A stretch of 64,000 bases of DNA. It comes from Candidatus Methylomirabilota bacterium. GTDB lineage: Bacteria; Methylomirabilota; Methylomirabilia; Rokubacteriales; CSP1-6. The notes beneath the pieces are model-generated. The model made no database searches, was not told where the DNA came from, and was given only the letters and a program-made list of their open reading frames with translations. The stretch spans positions 2,210 through 66,209 of the forward strand of contig DATBIM010000156.1 of NCBI GenBank assembly GCA_036556905.1, written 5' to 3'. Shown one piece after another: positions 17,699 through 54,873 of this stretch (positions within the stretch are counted from its first letter, which is position 1; each line of letters starts with the position of its first letter). The position numbers and the translations under genes are program-made.

Positions 17699-19309
17699 AT
17701 GGAGGTGCTGAGCCCGCTGGGGGTGGCTGACACCCGGCCCCGGCCACTGGCCAAGCGTCCGGCCCGCCTCGCCGGCTGCCGGGTCGCCGTCCTCGACAAC
17801 TCCAAGCCCAACGCCGACGTGCTGCTGGAACGGCTGGCCGAGCTGCTCGTAGCCCGGGCCGGTGTGGCCGAGGTCCGCCGCTGGCGCAAGCCGGGCAGCT
17901 CCCGAGCGGCCGAGGAGATCGACGCGATCGTCGCGGCCGCCGACGTCGTCCTCACCGGCTCGGCGGACTGAGGCTCCTGCACGTCGTGGAGTATCCACGA
18001 CGCGGCGCAGATCGAGGGGCGGGGAGTCCCCACCGTTGTCCTCGGCACCGACCTGTTCGCCTCGCTGGGCCACAGTGCCGCCGCGGCGCTGGGCCTGCCC
18101 GACCTGCCCCTCGTGACCGTCGCCCACCCGATCGGGGGCGTCGATCCCCATGCCGTGGCGGCCCGCGCTGACGGCGTCCTCGACGCCGTCGTGGCGGCGC
18201 TGACCCGAGCGCCGGCGCACTCGCCCGCCGCGGCGCCCGGTGCGGTGGCCCTGCTGGCCGCCCCCGATGACATCGACGCCTTTCAGGAATTTGCTCTGGC
18301 CGAGGGCTGGGGCGACGGGCTTCCCGTGCTCCCGCCCACTCCTGAGCGAGTCGCGCGTGTGCTGGCCGGCCAGCGTGGCGACCAGGTCGTGGCCACCTTG
18401 CCGCCTCGGCGGGGCGTGGCGACGCTCGAGGCCATTGCGGTCAACGCCGCGCTGGCCGGCGCCGGGCCCGAGCAACTGCCCCTGATCGTGGCCGCCGTGC
18501 GCGCCGTCGCCGACCCCCGCTTCAACCTGGACGCGATCCAGGCCACCACCCACCCCTGCACGCCGCTGGTGATCGTCAACGGCCCCCTCGCTCGGCGCCT
18601 GGGCGTGCACAGCGGAGCCAACGCGCTGGGCCAGGGTCACCGGGCCAATGCGGTCGTGGGCCGCGGGCTGCGGCTCACGCTGCAGAACGTGGGCGGGGCC
18701 CGGGCCGGGCAGGGCGACCGCGCCACGCTCGGGCACCCCGGCAAGTTCACGTACTGCGTCGCCGAGAACGAGGCGGAGTCGCCCTGGGAGCCGCTGCACG
18801 TGGAGCGCGGCTTCGATGCCGCGGCGAGCTGCGTGACGGTGTGCGGTGCCGAGGCGCCCCACAACGTGAATGACCACGGCTCGACGTCCGCCGAGGCTTT
18901 GCTGCTGGCCCTGGCCGGCACCGCGGCGACCACCGGCAACAACAACATCTATCTGGGCGGCGAGCCGCTGATCCTCCTCGGTCCCGAGCACGCGCGGACG
19001 ATCGCCGGATCGGGCTGGTCCAAGCGCGATCTCAAGCGAGCATTGTTCGACCGCGCGCGGGTGCGCCTGGGGGCCTTCAGCGCGGAGAACCTGGCCCGCT
19101 TCGCCACGATCGATCCCGCGCGCTTCCGCGGCCGCTCGCCCGACGACACCGTCACCGTGGCCGTCACGCCGGACGACGTGATGGTGGTGGTGGCGGGGGG
19201 GCCCGGCAAGCACTCCGCCATCGTCCCCACGTTCGGCGCGACGCGCGCGGTGACCGTGCCCGTCGAGGCCCCGGGCGACGCGCCGGTTGCGGGGCCCCGC
19301 TCGCGGTGA
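17699..19309 (+). CDS. UGSC-motif selenoprotein fused to a ~400 aa domain of unknown function (in-frame UGA = Sec at 17969-17971)
   Basis: Same frame continues through TGA 17969-71 (…DVVLTGSAD-U-GSCTSW…). Both flanks are homologous to the stand-alone UGSC protein at 20429-20959. A hairpin follows the UGA. RBS AGGAGG before ATG 17699. Confidence 0.6.
17978..18010 (+). promoter_or_regulatory. candidate bacterial SECIS hairpin for UGA 17969
   Basis: GTCGTGG-AGTAT-CCACGAC (extendable), starting about 11 nt after the UGA. Confidence 0.5.
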
Positions 19310-19340: not shown

Positions 19341-20432
19341 ATGGCGATCACGTTGACCTCACCGCGCCACGCCGTGGCGAACCTGGATGACGCTATCGAG
19401 TTCTGCTTCCAGCAGGGCTGGAGCGACGGGCTGCCCGTGGTGCCCCCCACCGAGGCCAAGGTGCAGGCCATGCTGGACGCCGCCAAGCTCGATCCCCAGC
19501 ACCAGGTGGCCTACGTGGAGCACCGGGCGGTATCCATCACCGCCGAGAAGGTGGCGATCAACGCGGTGATGGCCGGTTGCCTGCCCGCGTACATGCCGGT
19601 GGTGGTGGCTGCCGTCGAGGCCATCGGGGATCCTCGGTGGTCGTATCATGGCCCGGGCACCTCCACCGCCGGCGCCGGCGTGCTCATGATCGTGAACGGT
19701 CCCATTCGCCGTGAGCTCGACATCAACTGCGGCGACAACCTCTTCGGCCCGGGCTGGCGGTCGAATCTGACCATCGGCCGCGCCGTCCGCCTGATCATGC
19801 GCAACGTGTGCGGCTCGTGGCCGGGACGGCTCGACCGGGGGACGCTGGGCCATCCCGGCAAGCTCTCCTACGTCATCGGGGAAAACGAGGAGGAGAGCCC
19901 GTGGCCGCCGCTCCACGTCGAGCGGGGGCTGCGCCGCGAGCAGAGCGCGGTGACGGTGATGGCGGCGGAGGCGCCGCACCAGATCTACAACCAGCTCTCC
20001 AGCACCGCCGAGGGCGTCCTCACCACGCTCAGCGACGCCATGCGGATCTCCGGCAACGTGATGGGGCAGCCGCACTATGCCCTGATCCTCGCCGGCGAGC
20101 ACATGCGGACGATCGCCGGGAGCGGGTGGGGCAAGGACCAGATCCGGCGCTTCGTGTGGGAGCACACGCAGAACTCCCACGCCCACCTGCGGCGGACCGG
20201 TCGTATGGCGGGTCCCGTGCAGCCCGGCGACGAGGACAGGCTGCGACCGCTGGTGGAGAGCCCGGATGATATCCTGGTTGTGGCCGCCGGAGGCCGGGCC
20301 GGAAGCTTCTCGGCCTACATCCCCGGCTGGGGCAGCAAACGTTCCTCGCAGGCGGTGACAGTGGTGGTCGGAGGTGAGGTGAGCCGCTCGCCGAGCCGAC
20401 CCTTCAACGAGGCAAAGGAGGTCAGGCAATGA
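19341..20432 (+). CDS. conserved protein of unknown function, paralog of the C-terminal domain of the 17699-19309 gene
   Basis: Shared blocks with the upstream gene: GW(S/G)DGLPV(V/L)PPT, TLGHPGK..Y…ENE.ESPW.PLHVERG, TIAGSGW. RBS AGGGAGG before ATG 19341. Confidence 0.55.
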   Translation: MAITLTSPRHAVANLDDAIEFCFQQGWSDGLPVVPPTEAKVQAMLDAAKLDPQHQVAYVEHRAVSITAEKVAINAVMAGCLPAYMPVVVAAVEAIGDPRWSYHGPGTSTAGAGVLMIVNGPIRRELDINCGDNLFGPGWRSNLTIGRAVRLIMRNVCGSWPGRLDRGTLGHPGKLSYVIGENEEESPWPPLHVERGLRREQSAVTVMAAEAPHQIYNQLSSTAEGVLTTLSDAMRISGNVMGQPHYALILAGEHMRTIAGSGWGKDQIRRFVWEHTQNSHAHLRRTGRMAGPVQPGDEDRLRPLVESPDDILVVAAGGRAGSFSAYIPGWGSKRSSQAVTVVVGGEVSRSPSRPFNEAKEVRQ

Positions 20433-20959
20433 TCGAGATCCTCGACCCTACCACCCCGGCCGCCCGCCAGGCCATCGCCTATGCGCCGCGGCCCGGATCA
20501 CTCACGGGCAAGCGTGTCGCGTTGATCGAGAACACCAAGTTCAACTCCGATCGGCTGCTCCAGAAGATCGGCGACATCATGGTCAGGGAGTATGGGGCCG
20601 CCTCCACCCGGATGTGGCGCAAGAAGAACGCCAGCGTGCCGGCGCACGAGGAGATCATCGCCGAGGTGCGCCGAACCTGCGACGTGGTCGTCGCCGGCAT
20701 CGGTGATTGAGGGTCCTGCTCGTCGGGCAGTGTGCTCGACGGAATCGTGCTCGAGAAGGCCGGCGTTCCCTCGGCGTCGATCGTGACCGACGTGTTCGAG
20801 CGGACGGCCCGGGCCATGGCCGAGCAGTGGGGCCTCCCGACCTACCGGTTCCTCATGATGCCGCACCCCATCGCCAACCTCAGCGAGGCCGAGCTGGACC
20901 AGCGAGCTCGCGCGATCGTCTCGGAGGTGGCCAAGCTCCTCCTCCAGGGTCAGGAGTGA
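20429..20959 (+). CDS. UGSC family selenoprotein, stand-alone (in-frame UGA = Sec at 20708-20710)
   Basis: …DVVVAGIGD-U-GSCSSGS… Reading frame continues to 20959. Homologous to both flanks of the UGSC region of the 17699 gene. ATGA overlap with the upstream gene; RBS AGGAGG. Confidence 0.6.
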
Positions 20960-25747: not shown

Positions 25748-26446
25748 GTGCTCCGATCCATGTCGAGAGTACCGATCTCGCTTGCGCTGGCCACCGTGCT
25801 GATCACCGTCGCCACGGGCGTGGCGTATCTCGCCCTGCGCTGGGAGCCGGGGGACGAGACGGCAACCCCGATCGCCGCTCAGCCGCCGCGCGCCGAGCCG
25901 ACGGCGCCTTCAGCGTCGGCCCCGCCGCCGGCGGACACTCCGTCCCCCCGCCCGGCCAAGCCGCGGCCCGGCCGCCAGCTCGCTCTCGACGCCGCCATGC
26001 GCGAGCTCGACCTGATCCAGCCGTCGCGGACGCGCGCCGTGCAGGATTTCACGCTGCCGCTGGTGGGCGGCAAGTCGTTCCGCCTGACCGGCCATCGGGG
26101 GCAGATCCTGCTCATCAATTTCTGGGCGACCTGGTGCCCGCCCTGCCTCGAGGAGATGCCGGCGCTGGAGCGCCTGTGGCGTCAGCATCGGGACCACGGC
26201 TTCGTCCTGCTCGCCGTGTCGCTGGACACCGATTCCGGGCTCGTGGGTCCCTTCCTGGCCCGGCATCGCCTCACCTTCCCGGTCGCGCTCGACCCCAAGT
26301 ACGAGGTGGCCAATCTCTACGGCGTGCGGGCGCTGCCCGCGACCTTCGTCGTCGATCGGCTCGGGAACCTGGCCGCGCTGGCGCTGGGACCGCGAACCTG
26401 GGACAATGACGCGGCGCATTCCCTGGTGGAGGCTCTGGCGAAATAG
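25748..26446 (+). CDS. TlpA/ResA-like thiol:disulfide oxidoreductase (membrane-anchored thioredoxin fold)
   Basis: WATWCPPC active site with an N-terminal TM anchor. Confidence 0.7.
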   Translation: MLRSMSRVPISLALATVLITVATGVAYLALRWEPGDETATPIAAQPPRAEPTAPSASAPPPADTPSPRPAKPRPGRQLALDAAMRELDLIQPSRTRAVQDFTLPLVGGKSFRLTGHRGQILLINFWATWCPPCLEEMPALERLWRQHRDHGFVLLAVSLDTDSGLVGPFLARHRLTFPVALDPKYEVANLYGVRALPATFVVDRLGNLAALALGPRTWDNDAAHSLVEALAK

Positions 26447-26448
26447 GG

Positions 26449-27186
26449 ATGGGACAGTCGGTCGGCGTGGCAGTGGCGTTCAGCGCGGGCCTCTTCTCGT
26501 TCTTGTCGCCCTGCGTGCTGCCGCTGTTCCCCTCGTACCTGTCCTTTATCACTGGCATGTCGGTGGCCGACCTCACGGGCGACATCGCCCCCGCTGCGCG
26601 CCGGCGCGTGCTCCTGCACGCCCTGACCTTCGTGGCCGGCTTCTCGATGGTCTTCATCTCGCTGGGAGCGACCTTCAGCGCGGCCGGGCAGTTCCTGCTC
26701 GAGCATCGTGAGTCGATCCGCCGCCTGGGCGGCGCGCTGATCGTGCTCTTCGGCCTCTACATCGCCGGGGTGTTTCGCCTGGGCCTCTTCGGCCGCACCG
26801 CACAGCTCCAGTTCCGTGAGAAGCCGGCGGGTTATGCTGGCTCGCTCCTGGTGGGCATCACCTTCGCGATTGGGTGGACGCCCTGCGTGGGTCCCATCCT
26901 GGGGGCGATCCTGTCGTTGGCCGGTACCGCGGAGACGGTGCAGCGGGGTGTGGGCCTCCTCATCGCCTATTCGGCGGGCCTGGGTGTGCCCTTCCTGCTC
27001 TCCGCGCTGGCGCTCGGCTCGTTCCTGCGCTTCTTCAAGCGCTACCGCCCGTTCATCCCCGTCGTCGAGCGCGCCGCCGGGGTCCTGCTCGTCGTGGTGG
27101 GCGTGCTCGTCTTCACGAATTACTACACGGTCCTCAACGCCTGGGCCATCTCCCTGACGCCCGAGTGGCTGCTCAAGCGGCTCTAG
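26449..27186 (+). CDS. ccdA: cytochrome c-type biogenesis protein CcdA (DsbD-like thiol-disulfide transporter)
   Basis: FLSPCVLPLFP and …TPCVGPILG… Cys pair. Confidence 0.75.
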   Translation: MGQSVGVAVAFSAGLFSFLSPCVLPLFPSYLSFITGMSVADLTGDIAPAARRRVLLHALTFVAGFSMVFISLGATFSAAGQFLLEHRESIRRLGGALIVLFGLYIAGVFRLGLFGRTAQLQFREKPAGYAGSLLVGITFAIGWTPCVGPILGAILSLAGTAETVQRGVGLLIAYSAGLGVPFLLSALALGSFLRFFKRYRPFIPVVERAAGVLLVVVGVLVFTNYYTVLNAWAISLTPEWLLKRL

Positions 27187-31089: not shown

Positions 31090-32004
31090 ATGGATCTTCG
31101 CCGGCTCGAGGTCTTCGTGAAAGTCGCCGAGCTGGGGAGCTTCTCGCGCGCCGCCGAGGCGCTCTTTCTCACCCAGCCGACGGTGTCCGAGCATGTGCGC
31201 GCTCTCGAGGAGGACCTGGGTGTGCAACTGCTCGATCGCCTGGGCCGGGGAGCCGCCCCCACTCCGGCGGGACAGCTCCTGCTGGGCTACGCCCACCGCA
31301 TCCTGGCACTCATGCGCGAGGCGCGTCAGGCTGTCGATCGATTCCAGGGCCGTTTGCTCGGAGAGCTCATCGTGGGCGGCAGCACCATCCCCGGCGAGTA
31401 CATCCTTCCCGCCCTCATCGGCCAGTTCAAGGCCAAGTATCCCGATATCTCCATCAGCCTGCGCGTCGGTTCCAGCCAGCAGATCAGCGAGTGGGTGGAA
31501 GAGGGTCGGGTGGAGATCGGTGTCGTCGGGGCTCGTCCGGGCAGCCGGGCGCTGGTCGCCCGCGAGTTGATGGCCGACGAGATGGTGATCGTGGTGCCTC
31601 CCGAGCACCCCTGGACCCGACGGCCGAGCGTCGGGCTGGCCGACATCCGCGCGGAACCGCTCCTGCTGCGGGAACGCGGCTCGGGGACGCGGCAAGCGCT
31701 GGAGCGCGCGTTGGCCGAGGCGGGGACGGACCTGAGCGCCTTCCGGGTGGCTGGCGAGATGGGGTCCACCCAGGCGGTGAAGCAGGCGGTGCGAGCCGGG
31801 ATCGGCGTGACATTGCTGTCCAGGCTGGCCGTCGAGGACGAGTGCCGGGCCCGGCTCCTCGTGTGCGTGCGCGTGGAGGGTCTCGACGTTCGCCGGTCGT
31901 TCCACCTGGTGACCCATCGCGAACGCAGTCGCTCGCCGCTGGCGCAGGCCTTCCTGGAGTTCATAGAATCCCAGGCCGCCTCGGGGGCATCGCAAGAGCC
32001 GTGA
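31090..32004 (+). CDS. LysR family transcriptional regulator
   Basis: N-terminal HTH …FSRAAEALFLTQPTVSEHVRALE… and a LysR substrate-binding domain. Confidence 0.8.
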   Translation: MDLRRLEVFVKVAELGSFSRAAEALFLTQPTVSEHVRALEEDLGVQLLDRLGRGAAPTPAGQLLLGYAHRILALMREARQAVDRFQGRLLGELIVGGSTIPGEYILPALIGQFKAKYPDISISLRVGSSQQISEWVEEGRVEIGVVGARPGSRALVARELMADEMVIVVPPEHPWTRRPSVGLADIRAEPLLLRERGSGTRQALERALAEAGTDLSAFRVAGEMGSTQAVKQAVRAGIGVTLLSRLAVEDECRARLLVCVRVEGLDVRRSFHLVTHRERSRSPLAQAFLEFIESQAASGASQEP

Positions 32005-33062
32005 CGGGCAAAGAGATCCGTCTCACCGCCTACGCCTCCTGCGCGGGCTGAGCGTCCAAGATGGCTCCTGGAGATCTCCAGGAGGTGCTGGCCGTGCTCA
32101 GATCCGATCGCCCGACGGCCGCCCACGAGAACCTGCTGGTGGGCCTGGGACGCGCGGACGATGCGGCCGTCTACCGGTTGGCTCCCGATCTGGCTATCGT
32201 CGAGACGCTCGACTTCTTTCCGCCGGTCGTCGATGACCCTTATGTGTGGGGTGCCGTCGCCGCGGCCAATGCCATGTCCGACGTCTATGCGATGGGGGGC
32301 GAGGTGATGTTCGCCCTGGCCATCGCCGGCTTTCCCCGCGACATGCCCAAGTCGATCATCGCCGATGTCTTCCGGGGCGCCGCGGACAAGGTGGCCGAGG
32401 CGGGAGGCGTCGTGGCCGGGGGCCATACCGTCATCGACAACGAGCCCAAGTATGGGCTCTGTGTTACCGGCCGAATCCATCCCGATCGCGTCCTCCTCAA
32501 GGGCGGCCTCCGCCCGGGTGACCGTCTGTTCCTGTCCAAGCCCCTGGGCACCGGCGTCATCACCACGGCGGGCAAGGACGATGCGGCTCCGAGCGATATT
32601 CTGGCCGGCGCCGTCGCCAGCATGCTGAGGCTCAACCGGGTGGCGGCCCAGGTGGCCATTGCCGGCGGCGCCCGGGGCGCGACCGATGTCACGGGGTTCG
32701 GCCTGCTCGGTCACGCCGGCGAGATGGTGGAGGCGTCGGGGGCTGGGATCGAGGTGTCCTCCCGCCGCCTTCCGCTGCTGCCCGGCGCCCTGGCCCTCGC
32801 CGAGAAGGGACACTTCAGCGGGGGGATGAAGCGCAACCGCCGCTACGTCGAGGGCGTGTTCGGGCCCCGGCTCACGATCGACGCCGCGGTGGCTCCCGCG
32901 CTCGCTTCCCTCATGTTCGAGGCAGAGACCTCCGGGGGGCTGCTCTTCTCCGTCACGCCTGACCGGGCCCAGCGCGTGCTGGCCGACTTTGCCACTCGGG
33001 GGGAAACGGGCGTCGAGATCGGCGTCGTCCTCAGCGAGCCGCTGATTCGCGTCGTCCCCTGA
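32001..33062 (+). CDS. selD: selenide, water dikinase (selenophosphate synthetase) SelD with active-site selenocysteine (UGA 32049-32051)
   Basis: GTG 32001 overlaps the LysR stop (GTGA). N-terminus MTGKEIRLTAYASCAG-U-ASK… matches the SelD Sec/Cys loop. Downstream AIR-synthase-like fold. Hairpin after the UGA. Confidence 0.75.
32066..32085 (+). promoter_or_regulatory. candidate SECIS hairpin for selD UGA
   Basis: Perfect inverted repeat CTCCTGGAGA/TCTCCAGGAG, 15 nt downstream of the UGA. Confidence 0.5.
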
Positions 33063-47071: not shown

Positions 47072-47503
47072 ATGCTGCGATTCACCAAGCGCGCTGACTA
47101 CGGACTGATGGCGATCTACTACATCGCCGTGCACGAGGACGGCGGGGCTGTCAGCGCCAAGCGGATCGCGGAAGAATTCGGGATTCCGCCCGAGCTTCTG
47201 GCCAAGATCCTCCAGCGGCTGGCCCGCGAGCGACTGATCGTGAGTCAGAACGGCCCCAAGGGGGGGTACGTGCTGAGCCGGCGGCCCAGTGAGGTCACGG
47301 TGGGGGAAGTGCTCCGCGCCATCGAAGGCCCGATCAACATCGTGAGTTGTCTCGAGGACTCCGAGTGTCCCCAGATCGAGCGGTGCAACCTGCGGCGTCC
47401 GGTTCAGAAGATCCAGGCCGCCATCACGCAACTGCTGGACACGATGAGCCTGGCCGAGCTGGGGGGCCAAGACGTGCCCCTGCTGCTGGCCATCAAGGGA
47501 TGA
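47072..47503 (+). CDS. iscR: Rrf2-family Fe-S cluster regulator IscR
   Basis: MLRFTKRADYGLMAIYY… wHTH and C-terminal C…C…C ligands. First gene of the isc operon. Confidence 0.8.
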   Translation: MLRFTKRADYGLMAIYYIAVHEDGGAVSAKRIAEEFGIPPELLAKILQRLARERLIVSQNGPKGGYVLSRRPSEVTVGEVLRAIEGPINIVSCLEDSECPQIERCNLRRPVQKIQAAITQLLDTMSLAELGGQDVPLLLAIKG

Positions 47504-47522
47504 GGGTGAGGGGAGCGCATCG

Positions 47523-48749
47523 ATGACCGTGAAGTTTCCCATTTTCCTGGACGCGCAATCGACGACCCCCTGTGATCCCCGGGTGGTCGAGGCCATGTTG
47601 CCGTACTTCACCGAGAAATTCGGGCACCCGGCCAGTCGCAACCACCCCTTCGGCTGGGAGGCCGAGGGGGCCTGCGACGCGGCTCGGGCCAGCATCGCGC
47701 GACTGATCGGCGCGCGCGATCCCAAGGAAGTGGTGTTCACCTCGGGGGGCACAGAGGCGATCAACCTCGCCCTCAAGGGTGCCGCCGAGATGTACCGGGA
47801 GAAGGGGACACACATCGTCACCACCGTCATCGAGCAGCGGGCGGGGATCGACACCTGCAAGCGTCTGGAGCGGCAGGGGTTCCAGGTGACGTATGTGCCG
47901 GTGCAGTCCAACGGGCTCGTCGACGTCGAGGAGATCGGCCGGGCCGTCACCAACGCGACGATTCTCATCTCGGTGATGTTCGCCAACAACGAGATCGGGA
48001 CGATCCAGGACGTCGCCGCCATCGGAAGGCTGGCCAAGGACAGGGGCATCATCTTCCACACCGATGCCACCCAGGCCGTAGGCAAGATCCCGGTCGACGT
48101 GGAGGCCATGGGCATCGACCTCCTGTCCTGCACGGCCCACCTCATGTACGGGCCCAAAGGGGTCGGTGCGCTCTACGTCCGCCGCAAGGCGCCGCGGGTC
48201 CGCCTGGCCGCGCTCCTCGATGGGGGCGGTCATGAGCGCGGCCTCCGCTCGGGGACGTTGCCGGTTCCCCTCTGCGTCGGCTTCGGCCGGGCGGCCGAGA
48301 TCTGTCGGGAGGTCATGCCGGAGGAGAGCCAGCGCCTGGGCAAGCTCCGGGACCAGCTTCAAGATTTCATCCTGGCCAACGTGGAGGATGCTTACCTCAA
48401 CGGTGATCCCGATCGGCGGCTGCCCCACAACCTCAACGTGTCGTTCGCCTACGTGGAGGGAGAGTCGGTGCTGATGGGGCTGAACAAGGAGACCGCGCTC
48501 AGCTCGGGCTCGGCCTGCACCTCGTCGACCCTGGAGCCCTCGTACGTGATCGCGGCCCTGGGGGCCAGCGCGGAGCTGGCCCACTCGTCGATCCGGTTCA
48601 GCCTGCACCGGTTCACCACCCAGGCTGAGATCGACTGGGTCGGCCGGCGGACGGTGGAGGTTGTCAAACGGCTACGGGACATGTCGCCGCTCTACGAGCT
48701 GGCGAAAGAAGGTGTGGATCTGAAGTCCATCCAGTGGAAGGCCGAGTAG
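47523..48749 (+). CDS. iscS: cysteine desulfurase IscS
   Basis: PLP-dependent class V motifs and the SSGSACTS active-site Cys loop. Confidence 0.9.
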   Translation: MTVKFPIFLDAQSTTPCDPRVVEAMLPYFTEKFGHPASRNHPFGWEAEGACDAARASIARLIGARDPKEVVFTSGGTEAINLALKGAAEMYREKGTHIVTTVIEQRAGIDTCKRLERQGFQVTYVPVQSNGLVDVEEIGRAVTNATILISVMFANNEIGTIQDVAAIGRLAKDRGIIFHTDATQAVGKIPVDVEAMGIDLLSCTAHLMYGPKGVGALYVRRKAPRVRLAALLDGGGHERGLRSGTLPVPLCVGFGRAAEICREVMPEESQRLGKLRDQLQDFILANVEDAYLNGDPDRRLPHNLNVSFAYVEGESVLMGLNKETALSSGSACTSSTLEPSYVIAALGASAELAHSSIRFSLHRFTTQAEIDWVGRRTVEVVKRLRDMSPLYELAKEGVDLKSIQWKAE

Positions 48750-48760
48750 GGGGACGGGCC

Positions 48761-49153
48761 ATGGCCTACAGCGAGAAGGTCGTCGACCACTACAACAACC
48801 CCCGCAACGTGGGGTCCTTCGGCAAGGACCTGCCGAACGTGGGCACCGGTCTGGTGGGGGCGCCGGAGTGCGGCGATGTCATGAAGCTCCAGATCAAGGT
48901 GAACCCCTCCACCGGCGTGATCGAGGACGCGAAGTTCAAGACCTTCGGGTGCGGGAGCGCCATCGCTTCGTCGAGCCTGGCGACCGAGTGGCTCAAGGGC
49001 AAGACCCTGGACGAAGCGGCCAAGATCCGTAACACCGAGATCGTGAACGAGCTCAAGCTACCGCCCGTCAAGATCCACTGCTCGGTCCTGGCCGAGGATG
49101 CCATCAAGGCGGCCCTGGCCGACTATCAGGCCAAGCACGGCGCGGGGCGGTAA
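48761..49153 (+). CDS. iscU: Fe-S cluster scaffold IscU
   Basis: MAYSEKVVDHYNNPRNVG…GAPECGDVMKLQ…LPPVKIHCS. Confidence 0.9.
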   Translation: MAYSEKVVDHYNNPRNVGSFGKDLPNVGTGLVGAPECGDVMKLQIKVNPSTGVIEDAKFKTFGCGSAIASSSLATEWLKGKTLDEAAKIRNTEIVNELKLPPVKIHCSVLAEDAIKAALADYQAKHGAGR

Positions 49154-49178
49154 AGTAAGGATTGGGAGGTCGCGTCCG

Positions 49179-49508
49179 ATGGCAGTGGCACTGACCGAAA
49201 CGGCCGTGAAGCAGGTGAAGGAGCTCAAACAGGCCCAGAACCTGGGCGACGAGGTCTTTCTCCGGATGGGTGTCCGGGGTGGCGGGTGCTCGGGCATGTC
49301 ATACGCCCTGGAGTTCGACACCGAGAAGACGGCGCATGACCGGGAGTTCGAGATCGACGGCATCAAGGTGATCGTCGACAAGAAGAGCTACCTGTATCTG
49401 ACTGGCACGACGCTCGACTATGTCCGGGAGGGCCTTACCGGCGGATTTACGTTCGTCAACCCGAACGCCAAGTCGTCCTGTGGGTGCGGGACGTCGTTTT
49501 CGGCGTAG
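49179..49508 (+). CDS. iscA: iron-sulfur cluster insertion protein IscA/ErpA
   Basis: …GGGCSGMSY…CGCGTSF C-terminus. Confidence 0.85.
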   Translation: MAVALTETAVKQVKELKQAQNLGDEVFLRMGVRGGGCSGMSYALEFDTEKTAHDREFEIDGIKVIVDKKSYLYLTGTTLDYVREGLTGGFTFVNPNAKSSCGCGTSFSA

Positions 49509-49530
49509 CCGGGGCCCGGCGAACGGCGGC

Positions 49531-49560
49531 AAACGGGCCCCTGGGGGCCCGTTTTATTTT
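49531..49560 (+). terminator. rho-independent terminator between iscA and hscB
   Basis: AAACGGGCCCC-TGG-GGGCCCGTTT followed by TATTTT. Confidence 0.7.
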
Positions 49561-49573
49561 GGCAGCCTGAAGG

Positions 49574-50164
49574 ATGGGGGCCCTGGCGACGATCATGGAC
49601 TACTTCGAGGTGTTCGGATTGCCCCGCCGTCTGGGGATCGATGCCCAGACGCTGCAGCGCCGGTTCTACGAGCTGTCGCGACGCTACCACCCTGACTTTC
49701 ACGCGGGCGCGCCGCGCGAGGAGCAGGCGCGGACCCTGGAGGCCTCGGCCCGATTGAACGCGGCCTACCGGGCGTTGCGCGATCCCATCGCCCGGATCGA
49801 GTATCTCGTGCAGCTGGAAGAGGGTCGGCAAACCAGGGAAGGCGCGACGGTCAAGCCCCAGGCGCCTGCCGAGCTGCTGGCCGAGATGTTCGAGATCCAG
49901 GAGGCGCTGGACGAGACCCGGGCGGGTGACCTGGCCGAGACGGCCCGGGAGACCCTCCGCGCCCAGCGCGAGCGGCTGATGGCGCGGCGGCGGGAGGAGG
50001 GCGTGCGCCTCACCGGTCCGCTGGCCGCGGCCTGGGATGCCGCCGGCCCGGGCGAGCGTTCCGCCCTGCTCGAGGAGCTCAAGCGGGCACTGGCCGCCCG
50101 CGCCTACCTCCAGACCGTCATCGATGACCTCGCCCAGGCGCTGGGCGACGACGAGGCCCCCTAG
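49574..50164 (+). CDS. hscB: Fe-S co-chaperone HscB (J-domain)
   Basis: J-domain …YHPD… and HscB helical C-terminal domain. Confidence 0.75.
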   Translation: MGALATIMDYFEVFGLPRRLGIDAQTLQRRFYELSRRYHPDFHAGAPREEQARTLEASARLNAAYRALRDPIARIEYLVQLEEGRQTREGATVKPQAPAELLAEMFEIQEALDETRAGDLAETARETLRAQRERLMARRREEGVRLTGPLAAAWDAAGPGERSALLEELKRALAARAYLQTVIDDLAQALGDDEAP

Positions 50165-50167
50165 CCC

Positions 50168-52021
50168 ATGGGACGGATCGTGGGCATCGATCTGGGCACG
50201 ACCAACAGCCTGGTCGCTTACGTGGACGAACGCACGGGACTGCCCGAGGCCATTGCCGACGCCGAGGGGCACCGGCTGCTGCCCTCGGTCGTGGCCTTCA
50301 CGCCGCAGGGGATCCTGGTGGGCGAGGCGGCCCGGCGCTACCTGGTTCGACGGCCGGAGGCGACCGTGTACTCGGTGAAGCGATTCATGGGGCGTAGCTA
50401 CGAGGACGTCAAGGAGGAGCTACGCTACTTCCCGTTCGCGGTCCGGCCGGCCGACGGGATCGTGCGTCTGCAGGTGGGGGACCGCGAGGTCACTCCGCCC
50501 GAAGTGTCGGCGGTCATCCTCAAGACGTTGAAGGAGCGGGCGGAGGGGCATTTCGGCGAGCCGGTCGAGAAGGCGGTCATCACCGTGCCCGCCTACTTCA
50601 ACGACAGCCAGCGGCAAGCCACCCGCGACGCCGGGCGCATCGCCGGGCTGGAGGTCGCCCGCATCCTGAATGAGCCGACGGCGGCTTCGCTCGCCTATGG
50701 CCTCCACCGGCTACGTGAGGGCGTCATCGCCGTCTACGACCTGGGCGGGGGCACCTTCGACATCTCGATTCTGCGCGTCAAGGGCGGCATCTTCGAGGTC
50801 CTGGCCACGAACGGCAACACGCACCTCGGCGGCGACGACTTCGATCGCGTGCTCATGCTGTGGCTGCTCGAGGACATCCAGGCCCGTCACCATCGGGACC
50901 TGGCCTGCCGGCCAGTCGACCTCGCCCGCGACAACGAGGCCATGCAGGAGCTCAGGCTGGCCGCGGAGGCCGCGAAGATCCGTCTCTCCAGCGAGGAGCG
51001 GACCACGCTCATCCTCCCCTTCGAGGACTTCATCTACCGGCGAGAGATCACTCGGGCGGAGCTGGAGCGGCTCCTGGAGCCACTGGCCCAGAAGACCCTG
51101 GGGCCCTGCCGTCAGGCGCTGGCCGATGCCGGGCTGGGGCCGGACGGCATCGACGACGTGGTGCTGGTGGGGGGCTCCACCCGGGTCCCTCTGGTGCGGC
51201 AGCGGGTGCAGCAGTTGTTCGGCAAGACCCCCCACAGCCAGCTCAATGCCGACGAGGTGGTGGCCCTGGGGGCGGCGGTGCAGGCGCACATCCTGGCGGG
51301 CGGCATCAGCGACATGCTGCTGCTCGATGTGACCCCCCTGTCGCTGGGGATCGAGACGCTGGGGGGCATCGTGAGCGTTCTCATCCCCCGCAACACCACC
51401 ATTCCGACCAGCGCCCGAGAGATGTTCACGACGTCCGCCGATGGCCAGACGGTGGTCGACCTGCACGTGGTGCAGGGCGAGCGGGAGCTGGCCCGAGACT
51501 GCCGGTCGCTGGCTCGCTTCGAGCTGCGGGGGATCGATCCGATGCCGGCGGGGATGCCCAAGATCGAGGTGACGTTCCTGATCGACGCCGATGGCATTCT
51601 CAAGGTCACGGCCCGCGAGCTCCGCACGGGGAAGGTGGCCGCGATCGACGTCACCCCGACCTACGGCCTGACCGAGGGTGAGATCGAACGCATGGTGGAG
51701 GACTCTTTCCAGTATGCCGAGGCCGACGTGGAGGCCCGGATGCTGATCGAGGTCCGCAACGAGGCCGACACGGTGATGACCCATGTTCGTCGCGCCCTCA
51801 AGCAGGGTGGGCATCTGGTGACGGAGGCGGAGGGGGCCCACATCACGGCGGTCCTGGAGGAGCTGGCGCGGGTCCGCGAGACGGACGAGCGCGAGCTCAT
51901 CCGCAGCAAGACGGTGGAGCTCAATCGCGTGACCGAGCGCCTGGCCCAGGTGTTGATGGACGCGGCCCTGCAGGGAGCCCTGGGGACGCGCCGCGCCGCC
52001 GAGCTCATGGAGTCGGAGTGA
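50168..52021 (+). CDS. hscA: Fe-S chaperone HscA (Hsp70 family)
   Basis: [21 protein letters not shown] Hsp70 motifs; 617 aa. Confidence 0.85.
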
Positions 52022-52344
52022 TGGCGGTGCACCGGGTGACGTTCCTGCCTCTCAACGCCACCGTGGAGGTCGACGACGAGAAGTACCCCCTGGCCGATCA
52101 CGGCAAGCCCGGCTCGCTGCTGGATATCGCGCTGGCCCATCACATCCACCTCGACCACAACTGTGGGGGGAGCTGCGCCTGCACCACCTGCCACGTGATC
52201 GTGAAGGAAGGCGAGGCGAATCTCTCCCCGATGCAGACCGACGAGGAGGATCGTCTCGACACGGCCGAGGGACTGACCATTCATTCCCGCCTGGGCTGCC
52301 AGGCGGTGGTGCGAGGCGACGTGGTTGTGGAGATCCCGAAATGA
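52018..52344 (+). CDS. fdx: ISC-system [2Fe-2S] ferredoxin
   Basis: C…CGGSCACTTCH…C adrenodoxin-type motif. Confidence 0.8.
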   Translation: MMAVHRVTFLPLNATVEVDDEKYPLADHGKPGSLLDIALAHHIHLDHNCGGSCACTTCHVIVKEGEANLSPMQTDEEDRLDTAEGLTIHSRLGCQAVVRGDVVVEIPK

Positions 52345-52553
52345 CGGCGAAGATGACGTGGCGGGACGCCGAGGACATTGGCATCGCTCTGGCCGAGCGC
52401 TTCCCGGACACCGATCCCCTGACGGTACGGTTCACGGACCTGCACCGCTGGGTGACGGAGTTGCCCGGATTCGCCGACGACCCCAAGGGATCCACCGAGG
52501 GTGCCCTCGAGAAAATCCAGATGGCATGGTTGGAGGAGTACCGGAACCGATGA
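52341..52553 (+). CDS. iscX: Fe-S assembly protein IscX
   Basis: MKWTD-like start, …FTDLHRWV…LPGF.DDP…. Confidence 0.7.
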   Translation: MTAKMTWRDAEDIGIALAERFPDTDPLTVRFTDLHRWVTELPGFADDPKGSTEGALEKIQMAWLEEYRNR

Positions 52554-52759
52554 TCGGTCCGGCTCGGGGGTGGCGGGGGCTATTCGACCACGGGCGCGAC
52601 GGCGACGGTTGCGGCGCGCTCGCCCATCGACCCGCCAGGGCTGCCTACGCCAGGGAAACGGGTCTCACAGCCCCCACCACCCCCGAGCCGGGCGACCGTC
52701 AGCGCGGTGCGCTCGAGCACGGCCGGCAGGCCGGATCGAACATGCCGGGTTCGGAGCTT

Positions 52760-52987
52760 CTACCAGGTGAGGACGTGGTCGGCGGCGAAGATCAGCTCGA
52801 GCAGCCCGTCGTAGGAGAGATCGTCGGGGACCCGGAGGGCGCGGACCCCGGCGGGCAGGGACGGCCCGGGGGCGCCGTGGAGCAGGGCGACCGTGACCGC
52901 ATTCCCGTCGGCGAGCTGCTGGCCGATGGTGGCCAGGATCAGCTCGTCCTGGGCGCTGCTCTTCACGAGGTGGAGCTGAGCCGCCAT
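52760..52987 (-). CDS. TusB/DsrH-like sulfur relay protein
   Basis: ~75 aa; C-terminal …ADHVLTW resembles TusB/DsrH. Confidence 0.45.
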   Translation of the reverse strand: MAAQLHLVKSSAQDELILATIGQQLADGNAVTVALLHGAPGPSLPAGVRALRVPDDLSYDGLLELIFAADHVLTW

Positions 52988-53343
52988 CAGAAGATGAGGG
53001 CCCGTTCGGCGCCCCGCACCAGCGCGGCGATGCCCTCGCGACTGACGGCGAGCACCGGGTGCTTGTCGGCATTCCAGGCCGGGTCCGCTGGCACCGCGTC
53101 CGCCTCCACGTGGAAGGCCACGCCCAGGGCCCGGAGGGTGGCGCGGAACTTGGCGATCTCGTCACCGTCCACGAGCCCGTCGGTGTCCTCGTCGAGGAGA
53201 TGGACGGCGGCACCGGTGAGCACGAAGGTCACCGCGTTCTCGCCGGCCACCACACCAGTTCCGATGCGCATGGCTTCGAAGGCCCGGTGGCTGACGCGGG
53301 GATCGGCCGAGATGAGAACGACGACCGACTCGTGGCTGGCCAC
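52987..53343 (-). CDS. TusC/DsrF-like sulfur relay protein
   Basis: 118 aa DsrE/DsrF-fold; C-terminal …ALIF. Confidence 0.5.
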   Translation of the reverse strand: MASHESVVVLISADPRVSHRAFEAMRIGTGVVAGENAVTFVLTGAAVHLLDEDTDGLVDGDEIAKFRATLRALGVAFHVEADAVPADPAWNADKHPVLAVSREGIAALVRGAERALIF

Positions 53344-53350
53344 GCCGCGA

Positions 53351-53674
53351 TCAGTTCAGCGCGATGAAGCGATCGGTCGCGTTGATGATGTCGGTCAGGA
53401 CGACCAGGCCGCAGTAGGTCAGCTCAGGGGAGTCTTCGAGGGGAATGCGGCGCTTCTGGCAGCCGTACGCGCACAGGAAGAGCTTGGCCCCGCGCGCCGG
53501 CAGGGCGCGGAGGCGGGGATCGCGCACGGCCCGCACCCCGTCGTCGATCAGGTACAGGTAGAGATCGGTGCCGTGATCGAGCGCGGCGGTCGCCAGCCCC
53601 AGCGCGGTCTCGATGTTCGGATGCTCGGGGCCGGTGGAAAGCAGCAGGCCGAACTTTTTTCTGCCCGGGGCCAT
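53351..53674 (-). CDS. TusD/DsrE-like sulfur relay protein
   Basis: 107 aa with LFLCAYGCQ active-Cys region typical of DsrE/TusD. Confidence 0.55.
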   Translation of the reverse strand: MAPGRKKFGLLLSTGPEHPNIETALGLATAALDHGTDLYLYLIDDGVRAVRDPRLRALPARGAKLFLCAYGCQKRRIPLEDSPELTYCGLVVLTDIINATDRFIALN

Positions 53675-53715
53675 CGCCGCCCGAGCCTAACATCGGGGCG
53701 GCGAGAGGGCAACCG

Positions 53716-54873
53716 ATGAGCCGGCGGGTCTATCTCGATCACAACGCCTCCACGCCCGTTCATCCCGACGTCGTTGACGCGATGCTGCCGTACCTGGGTG
53801 AACGGTTCGGGAACCCATCCAGCGTTCATGGCTTCGGCCGGGAGGCCCGCGACGGCGTGGAGCAGGCCCGCGAGCGGGTCGCGAGCCTGCTGGGTGTCTC
53901 GCCCGAGGAGATCGTGTTCACCTCGGGCGGTACGGAGTCCGACAACCTCGGGATCAAGGGCCTGGCCGGGGCCGGCCCCCGCGGTCACCTCATCACCTCG
54001 CAGATCGAGCATCCCGCCGTGCTCCGCACGTGCCAGGCGCTGGAAGCCGAGGGCTTTGCCGTCACCTACCTGCCGGTGGACGAGCACGGCGTGGTCGATC
54101 CTGGCGACGTCAAGCGGGCCATCCGCCCCGACACCCGCGCCATCAGCGTCATGCACGCCAACAGCGAGATCGGCACCGTGCAGCCGGTGGCCGCCATCGG
54201 CGCCATCGCCCGCGAGCACGGCATCGCCTTGCACGTGGACGCCGTGCAGACCTTCGGGAAGATTCCCCTGGATCTGACCGCGCTGGCCATCGACGCCATG
54301 TCGGTATCCGCCCACAAGATTTATGGCCCCAAAGGGGTGGGTGCCCTCTTCGTCCGCCGGGGGACGCGGATGGTGGGGATCCAGCATGGTGGTGAGCACG
54401 AGCGACGGCGGCGGGCCGGCACCGAGAACGTCCCGGGCATCGTGGGCTTCGGCCGGGCCGTGGAGATCCGGTCCCGCGAGATGGGGCCGGAGGCCGAGCG
54501 CCTGCGTGCGCTGCGCGACCGGTTAACGGATGGTGTGCGGGCCCGTCTGGACGAGGTCCGGCTCATCGGGCATCCCGGGGAGCGGCTCCCCGGGACGGCG
54601 AATCTCGCCTTCCGCCACGTGGAGTCGGAGTCCATCGTCCTCGGGCTGGATCTCAAGGGCGTGGCCGTGTCGGCCGGCACAGCGTGCACCGCCGGCCATG
54701 TGGAGCCCTCCCACGTGCTGACGGCGCTGGGGCTGCCGCCGGCGTGGGCGATGGGCGCGGTGCGGTGCTCCCTGGGCCGCTCCACCACGGCCCAGGACAT
54801 CGACTACGTCATCGAGTGCCTGGAGGCGGTGGTGGGGAAGCTGCGCCGCCTGCTCCCGACAGGGCCCGCATGA
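53716..54873 (+). CDS. NifS/IscS-type cysteine desulfurase (second copy)
   Basis: Class V aminotransferase fold motifs; active loop SAGTACTAG. Confidence 0.8.
   Translation: MSRRVYLDHNASTPVHPDVVDAMLPYLGERFGNPSSVHGFGREARDGVEQARERVASLLGVSPEEIVFTSGGTESDNLGIKGLAGAGPRGHLITSQIEHPAVLRTCQALEAEGFAVTYLPVDEHGVVDPGDVKRAIRPDTRAISVMHANSEIGTVQPVAAIGAIAREHGIALHVDAVQTFGKIPLDLTALAIDAMSVSAHKIYGPKGVGALFVRRGTRMVGIQHGGEHERRRRAGTENVPGIVGFGRAVEIRSREMGPEAERLRALRDRLTDGVRARLDEVRLIGHPGERLPGTANLAFRHVESESIVLGLDLKGVAVSAGTACTAGHVEPSHVLTALGLPPAWAMGAVRCSLGRSTTAQDIDYVIECLEAVVGKLRRLLPTGPA

Follow-up and report, generated by a model that had tools for sequence, protein, structure and literature searches.

A stretch of 64,000 nucleotides (nt) from a Candidatus Methylomirabilota bacterium (contig DATBIM010000156.1, assembly GCA_036556905.1; hereafter the window, with a G+C content of 69%) was analysed around a gene interrupted by an in-frame TGA codon. 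The listing of open reading frames (ORFs) on the plus strand held two ORFs in one and the same frame, at 20429–20710 (93 amino acids, aa) and 20732–20959 (75 aa). Translation from 20429 to 20959 gave 93 aa, the TGA, 82 aa and a stop codon, a protein of 176 residues with AGIGD immediately before and GSCSS immediately after the internal codon. A preliminary description of this DNA had joined the two ORFs into a 176-aa protein preceded by a ribosome-binding site AGGAGG and an ATGA overlap with the preceding gene; both elements were present and its coordinates were all borne out. The gene is the last of three in the order UGSC–X fusion, X, UGSC, where UGSC denotes a selenoprotein family and X a partner protein (Table 1). 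In our view 20429–20959 forms one gene, encoding a selenoprotein of the UGSC family, with the UGA recoded to selenocysteine (Sec), at a probability of roughly 93%. Direct support came from the single frame, the family membership, a Cys at the UGA position in homologues, a conserved and covarying hairpin, and the near-constant adjacency of the partner gene.

Table 1. Features of the UGSC locus and of the selD gene, in window coordinates. SECIS, selenocysteine insertion sequence.
Feature	Positions	Strand	Basis
UGSC–X fusion gene, 536 codons; probable Sec codon 17969–17971, putative SECIS hairpin 17982–18002	17699..19309	+	Translation, family models
Partner gene X, 363 aa, immediately upstream of the UGSC gene, translationally coupled, no named family	19341..20432	+	Adjacency, homologue search
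Shine-Dalgarno-like AGGAGG, 7 nt before ATG 20429	20416..20421	+	Direct sequence reading
ATGA overlap of ATG 20429 with the stop codon TGA 20430–20432 of the preceding gene	20429–20432	+	Direct sequence reading
UGSC-family gene, very probably for a selenoprotein; 176 codons, Sec codon 94, Cys codon 97	20429..20959	+	Translation, NF041046 and PF24696, 69 orthologues of the same architecture
In-frame UGA, very probably read as selenocysteine, in D-U-G-S-C	20708..20710	+	TGA in 70/70 group sequences; TGC in Cys homologues
Putative bacterial SECIS-type hairpin, 9-bp stem, apical loop G23-U24-G25 at 20730–20732	20720..20742	+	Folding, pair conservation, criteria for bacterial SECIS elements
Selenophosphate synthetase SelD, in-frame UGA 32049–32051 (YASCAG-U-ASKMAPGDL)	32001..33062	+	Translation, Pfam AIRS and AIRS_C, TIGR00476

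In the family-model searches, the UGSC and SelD sequences were given a C in place of U. The UGSC protein matched the NCBIfam model NF041046 ('UGSC family (seleno)protein') with 144.7 bits (cut-off 125), its residues 27–171 corresponding to profile positions 2–146 of 147, and the Pfam model PF24696 ('UGSC family') with 207 bits (cut-off 25), its residues 3–172 corresponding to positions 1–171 of 172. Both matches spanned the UGA, in agreement with the UGSC identity given to the protein in the preliminary description. In an alignment of 72 sequences (71 homologues and the window protein), D93, G95, S96 and C97 were invariant and C94 was conserved in at least 90%. A search for remote relatives in Pfam at an E value of 10, made with the single protein and with every member of the alignment, returned only PF24696, and profile searches of PDB sequences gave no significant match for UGSC or for X.

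The 'UGSC-containing protein' was introduced by Zhang and Gladyshev, first from Hyphomonas neptunium, an Olavius symbiont and ocean metagenomes, and was listed as a selenoprotein of unknown function (PMC1976440). A study from 2008 ranked it with the most abundant selenoprotein families of ocean and freshwater metagenomes (255 Sec and 21 Cys forms in the Global Ocean Sampling data), considered a thioredoxin-like fold 'likely' and noted occasional fusions to a domain 'Unknown_1' (PMC2398784). In 2026 its description was still 'uncharacterised' (PMC13188914). The window protein shares with the family a full-length match above the cut-offs, the D-U/C-G-S-C motif and the coexistence of Sec and Cys forms, and nothing places it outside. 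Specific to the locus are the Rokubacteria/Methylomirabilota host and the tandem arrangement, in which a split pair comes after a fused one. The gene adds an unremarkable member to a selenoprotein family on record since 2007–2008, in a phylum for which a wealth of selenoproteins has already been reported, and is as such of low surprise.

The fusion gene lies 2.7 kb upstream of the UGSC gene and carries its own in-frame TGA, between GSAD and GSCTS. Its product matched NF041046 with 137.5 bits and PF24696 with 169.8 bits (residues 2–169). The 176-aa protein aligned with residues 1–168 of the fusion at 35% identity (E 5e-30), so the alignment with the UGSC part of the upstream gene that had been reported from the sequence alone was reproduced. 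The remaining part of the fusion (approximately 360 residues) was 41% identical to the standalone X. The TGA was kept in 16 of 16 UGSC–X fusion genes found in related loci. In public databases the fusion is represented only by fragments of approximately 400–415 aa that start past the UGA, one of which (P0121) was 100% identical over 398 aa.

Orthologues were collected by scanning one genome per species, which yielded 80 loci, mostly from metagenome-assembled genomes (MAGs) of Candidatus Rokubacteria and Methylomirabilota, the best of them 95% identical. Within the main group, five orthologues (four from Burkholderiales, one from Acidimicrobiales) had TGC (Cys) in the UGA column, as did one more distant homologue from Xanthobacteraceae. 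A protein search likewise returned full-length homologues with 55–66% identity and a Cys in this column (GDCGSCSS), some of them named 'UGSC family (seleno)protein' by NCBI.

A hairpin with the sequence UCGUCGGGCA-GUG-UGCUCGACGG follows the UGA. With the U of the UGA numbered 1, nt 14–22 pair with nt 26–34, and a U13·G35 wobble extends the stem in the window copy (9–10 bp). The hairpin begins 11–12 nt past the UGA and its apical loop lies 19 nt past it. Folded in isolation, it reached −14.1 kcal/mol, compared with −14.6 kcal/mol for that of the fusion gene; the preliminary description had noticed a hairpin here and called it the weaker of the two, and its presence stood but the ranking did not. 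Pairing was evaluated in 43 distinct Sec-form sequences, comprising standalone and fused genes and proteobacterial 'U-G-A-C' variants. Standard pairs were formed in 99% of the cells, against 23–52% with slid partners, and changes on both sides of a pair were observed in 15/33 (G-C to A-U), 19/29 (G·U, U-A, U·G) and 21/27 (C-G to G-C). The mean third-position entropy of the seven hairpin codons was 0.027 bits, the lowest of any seven-codon window, compared with 0.80 bits in the rest of the gene. The Cys-form orthologues kept the residues encoded there but used different synonymous codons, which disrupt the stem; frozen synonymous sites were thus confined to the Sec forms.

Bacterial SECIS (bSECIS) elements have been defined by a loop of 3–9 nt on a stem of 4–16 bp, a G within the first two loop positions, a distance of 16–37 nt between UGA and loop, and a minimum free energy of at most −7.5 kcal/mol (PMC13188914). 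The window hairpin, with its 3-nt loop GUG on a 9-bp stem, G23-U24, a spacing of 19 nt and −14.1 kcal/mol, fell within all four. In the E. coli SECIS, G23 and U24 are the conserved bases of the apical loop, and the upper stem has a bulged U17 (PMC8659212). Like the SelB-recognised element of the E. coli fdhF type, the window hairpin is located within the coding region, starts 11–12 nt past the UGA and exposes G23 and U24, invariant in 43/43 Sec-form sequences, in its apical loop. In contrast to that element, it lacks a bulged U17 (C17 pairs with G31 in 43/43), and a 3-nt loop closes an uninterrupted stem of 9–10 bp. The hairpin is accordingly described as a putative SECIS that fits the consensus and has comparative support.

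A further indication of Sec decoding is encoded 11 kb from the UGSC gene. The SelD protein matched NCBIfam TIGR00476 (selD) with 347.6 bits (cut-off 125), and its UGA takes the place of the catalytic Cys (Cys17-equivalent). A Sec-containing SelD is evidence for Sec decoding in this genome. The GTG start codon of selD overlaps the stop codon of the upstream LysR-type regulator gene (GTGA), and a palindromic sequence, CUCCUGGAGAUCUCCAGGAG, was seen about 20 nt past its UGA. From the same phylum, a Methylomirabilota MAG with 63 predicted selenoproteins has been described (PMC13188914).

Comparative data alone show that the codon is translated through and leave the identity of the inserted residue to other evidence; near-cognate read-through or an altered code might then place a standard amino acid (Trp, Cys or Gly) at the UGA. 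We regard this as very improbable. UGA is the ordinary stop codon of 30 of the 45 window genes, including the UGSC gene and its neighbour, which indicates that the genetic code has not been reassigned. The homologues place Cys, the usual counterpart of Sec, in the UGA column, the SECIS-type hairpin with its frozen synonymous sites accompanies only the UGA forms, and the nearby SelD itself carries a UGA. Moreover, UGSC is a recognised selenoprotein family (PMC2398784, PMC13188914).

If the TGA were instead a genuine stop codon, the locus would hold a pseudogene, or two genes of 93 and 75 aa, the second starting at GTG 20732. Gene callers split the sequence in just this way, the GTG is in frame, and the protein search returned dozens of 96-aa 'hypothetical proteins' with 68–85% identity that end at AGIGD. 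These database entries are truncated Sec forms, and a genuine stop is very improbable and already largely refuted. In the main count of 70 Rokubacteria/Methylomirabilota sequences (the window and 69 orthologues), the Sec codon was TGA in 70/70, followed each time by exactly 82 open codons, whereas the terminal stop of the same genes varied (TAG 53, TAA 10, TGA 7); a genuine internal stop would be expected to drift in the same manner. The ratio of nonsynonymous to synonymous substitution rates (dN/dS) relative to the window sequence was 0.29 over 70 codons upstream of the UGA and 0.19 over the 82 codons downstream, the latter indicating purifying selection on the codons past the UGA. Downstream, the entropies of the three codon positions were 25.8, 18.9 and 64.7, the third being about three times as high as positions 1 and 2, and the median amino acid identity was 82%.

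The seven codons between the UGA and GTG 20732 were informative on the supposed second start. They encode GSCSSGS, which belongs to the invariant motif of the family in the uninterrupted Cys forms, and their amino acids were conserved while their codons varied synonymously; the first two codons after the UGA appeared as GGG, GGC or GGA and as TCC, TCG, TCT or AGC. Selection on amino acids was therefore already acting well before GTG 20732, the sole possible restart codon. No ribosome-binding or other purine-rich site precedes this GTG, which is located inside the hairpin, in its loop and 3′ arm. The preliminary description had read the UGA as translated and had proposed a comparison of Ka/Ks across it, naming a lack of conservation in the 75 downstream codons and an independent start at 20732 as the outcomes that would speak against read-through. 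Neither was found: both sides of the UGA were conserved, identity and purifying selection held over the last 75–82 codons, and the aligned Cys of the homologues agrees with read-through.

One Rokubacteria orthologue (L081; GCA_016188015.1, JACPIP010000348.1) has CGA (Arg) at positions 49–51 with an intact SECIS; located 50 nt from the contig end, this codon may have arisen by error or by a recent T-to-C mutation. That the TGA itself stands for a TGC or TGT misread in sequencing or assembly is negligibly probable, since, for all the single-base variation or error at the site that L081 displays, TGA is present in 69 other independent assemblies from different studies and in the fusion paralogue of the window.

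With Sec at the UGA as the preferred reading, the partner gene X bears on what the protein might do. X adjoined UGSC in nearly all of the 80 loci, in either order or fused, and this held for Sec as well as Cys forms. The existence of a natural fusion speaks for the two proteins working as one unit. X had more than 7,900 homologues, none with an informative name among the 120 listed, and it gave no match in Pfam or NCBIfam, in Pfam even at an E value of 10, when searched as single proteins and with every alignment member. X carries a conserved cluster of Arg, His and Glu residues. Its structure model had a predicted local distance difference test score (pLDDT) of 81; the top Foldseek match was class I fumarate hydratase, with an E value of 4e-5 but a template modelling (TM) score of 0.26, so that the modelling provided no convincing solved structural relative. 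Clustering of ORFs across distant taxa, the output of which was confounded by spurious overlapping ORFs in high-G+C DNA, revealed no third conserved neighbour: only UGSC and X were common outside Rokubacteria. Two betaproteobacterial contigs (L075, 5842–13092, and L078, 4689–15782) contained two or three UGSC and X pairs with the motifs U-G-A-C and U-G-S-C. The pairs alternated with genes for TctC/Bug-family solute receptors, for a short-chain dehydrogenase and, immediately behind X, for a 145-aa CMD/AhpD-like protein. TctC systems import di- and tricarboxylates. These neighbourhoods hint at small-acid metabolism.

The fold was examined with an AlphaFold model (pLDDT 89) of P0001, a Cys homologue with 66% identity; the model consisted of alternating strand–helix units with five strands and five helices. 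Residues 94 and 97 were located between the strand 86–89 and the helix 95–110. The best Foldseek matches were generic flavodoxin-like domains with TM scores of at most 0.47, and no thioredoxin fold was among the top 50 matches. The predicted fold is thus a parallel-sheet alpha/beta/alpha arrangement that resembles flavodoxin rather than thioredoxin. Compared with the thioredoxin-fold oxidoreductases to which the literature had assigned UGSC by conjecture, the model lacks the thioredoxin fold and retains a redox pair where a strand is followed by the N-terminus of a helix. Compared with UxxC/CxxC thiol–selenol oxidoreductases (thioredoxin-fold selenoproteins, reductase subunits of the PrdB/GrdB type), UGSC is alike in the U-x-x-C at a strand-to-helix junction and in the interchange of Sec and Cys, and unlike in showing no sequence relation in Pfam even at an E value of 10 and in having a partner, X, without a Pfam family or an invariant cysteine. 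PrdB depends on a partner protein, PrdA, and UGSC may be likened to it in this dependence.

In the mechanism that we propose, decoding of the UGA as selenocysteine would follow the usual bacterial pathway, the apical loop of the hairpin presenting G23-U24 and recruiting SelB with Sec-tRNA(Sec) to the ribosome. The product would be a 176-residue alpha/beta protein with U94-G-S-C97 where a beta-strand ends and a helix begins, a placement typical of redox-active CxxC/UxxC pairs. UGSC would work with the X protein, to which it is coupled translationally at this locus and fused in the paralogue. Most likely, U94 and C97 form a selenol/thiol (selenenylsulfide) redox centre or a nucleophilic centre that acts together with X. 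The nearly universal gene pair, the fusions, and the TctC, short-chain dehydrogenase and AhpD/CMD-like neighbours in betaproteobacteria led us to a more tentative hypothesis, which we consider possible and on balance rather doubtful: UGSC and X might be two subunits or domains of an undescribed selenoenzyme acting on a small organic-acid substrate, X being the catalytic part and UGSC a selenol/thiol subunit of flavodoxin-like fold instead of an antioxidant with a thioredoxin fold.

Several observations weigh against these interpretations. The actual incorporation of selenium at the UGA is something we infer from sequence comparison. ARAGORN found no tRNA gene in the 64-kb window and there was no Rfam match; the tRNA-Sec gene, selA and selB are not in the window, the scanned ORFs of which showed neither a SelA nor a SelB domain. 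In its single-sequence context of 61–63 nt, the UGSC hairpin folded no better than shuffled sequences (z = +0.2), and that of the fusion gene was marginal (z −2.0). For the UGSC hairpin, such a result is to be expected in G+C-rich DNA. Single-sequence folds around the two UGAs were set aside and comparative tests used instead, so the support for the hairpin is comparative and not thermodynamic. Most hairpin positions were invariant among the orthologues, the covariation coming mainly from paralogues and distant homologues, where the substitutions that restore pairing alter the encoded residues as well (Gly to Trp, Leu to His). The structure model is that of the homologue P0001, not of the window protein, and X had no invariant cysteine. 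A redox role and a partnership of UGSC with X are read only from motif position and gene order; a physical UGSC–X association, selenenylsulfide chemistry and any substrate are likewise inferences.

The other genes near the UGSC locus were uninformative (a CPBP protease, an alpha/beta hydrolase and a Dpp-type ABC transporter). At 25748–27186 on the plus strand, a gene for a ResA/TlpA-like thiol-disulfide oxidoreductase (AhpC/TSA, Redoxin) was followed by one for a DsbD-type transmembrane protein; the former had a sub-threshold match to the 'WAxxUGC' model NF041054 (50 bits, cut-off 300), and no in-frame TGA was seen. An Rrf2-family regulator and a class-V aminotransferase (cysteine desulfurase-like) were encoded at 47072–48746, and a second class-V aminotransferase at 53716–54870, beside a DsrE-like gene at 53354–53674 on the minus strand. 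A role of the genes at 47072–54870 in sulfur or selenium trafficking is possible. A scan of the 64-kb window for further in-frame TGA candidates found only ordinary gene boundaries beyond the codons at 17969 and 20708.

Standard gene calling splits or truncates the UGSC gene, its fused paralogue and SelD. Reading the UGA as Sec restores three proteins within the window. Hundreds of such fragments from the phylum are on record in public databases. The case brings nothing new on recoding; it sharpens the open question on the abundant UGSC family. UGSC–X offers a concrete pair of proteins for expression and assay.

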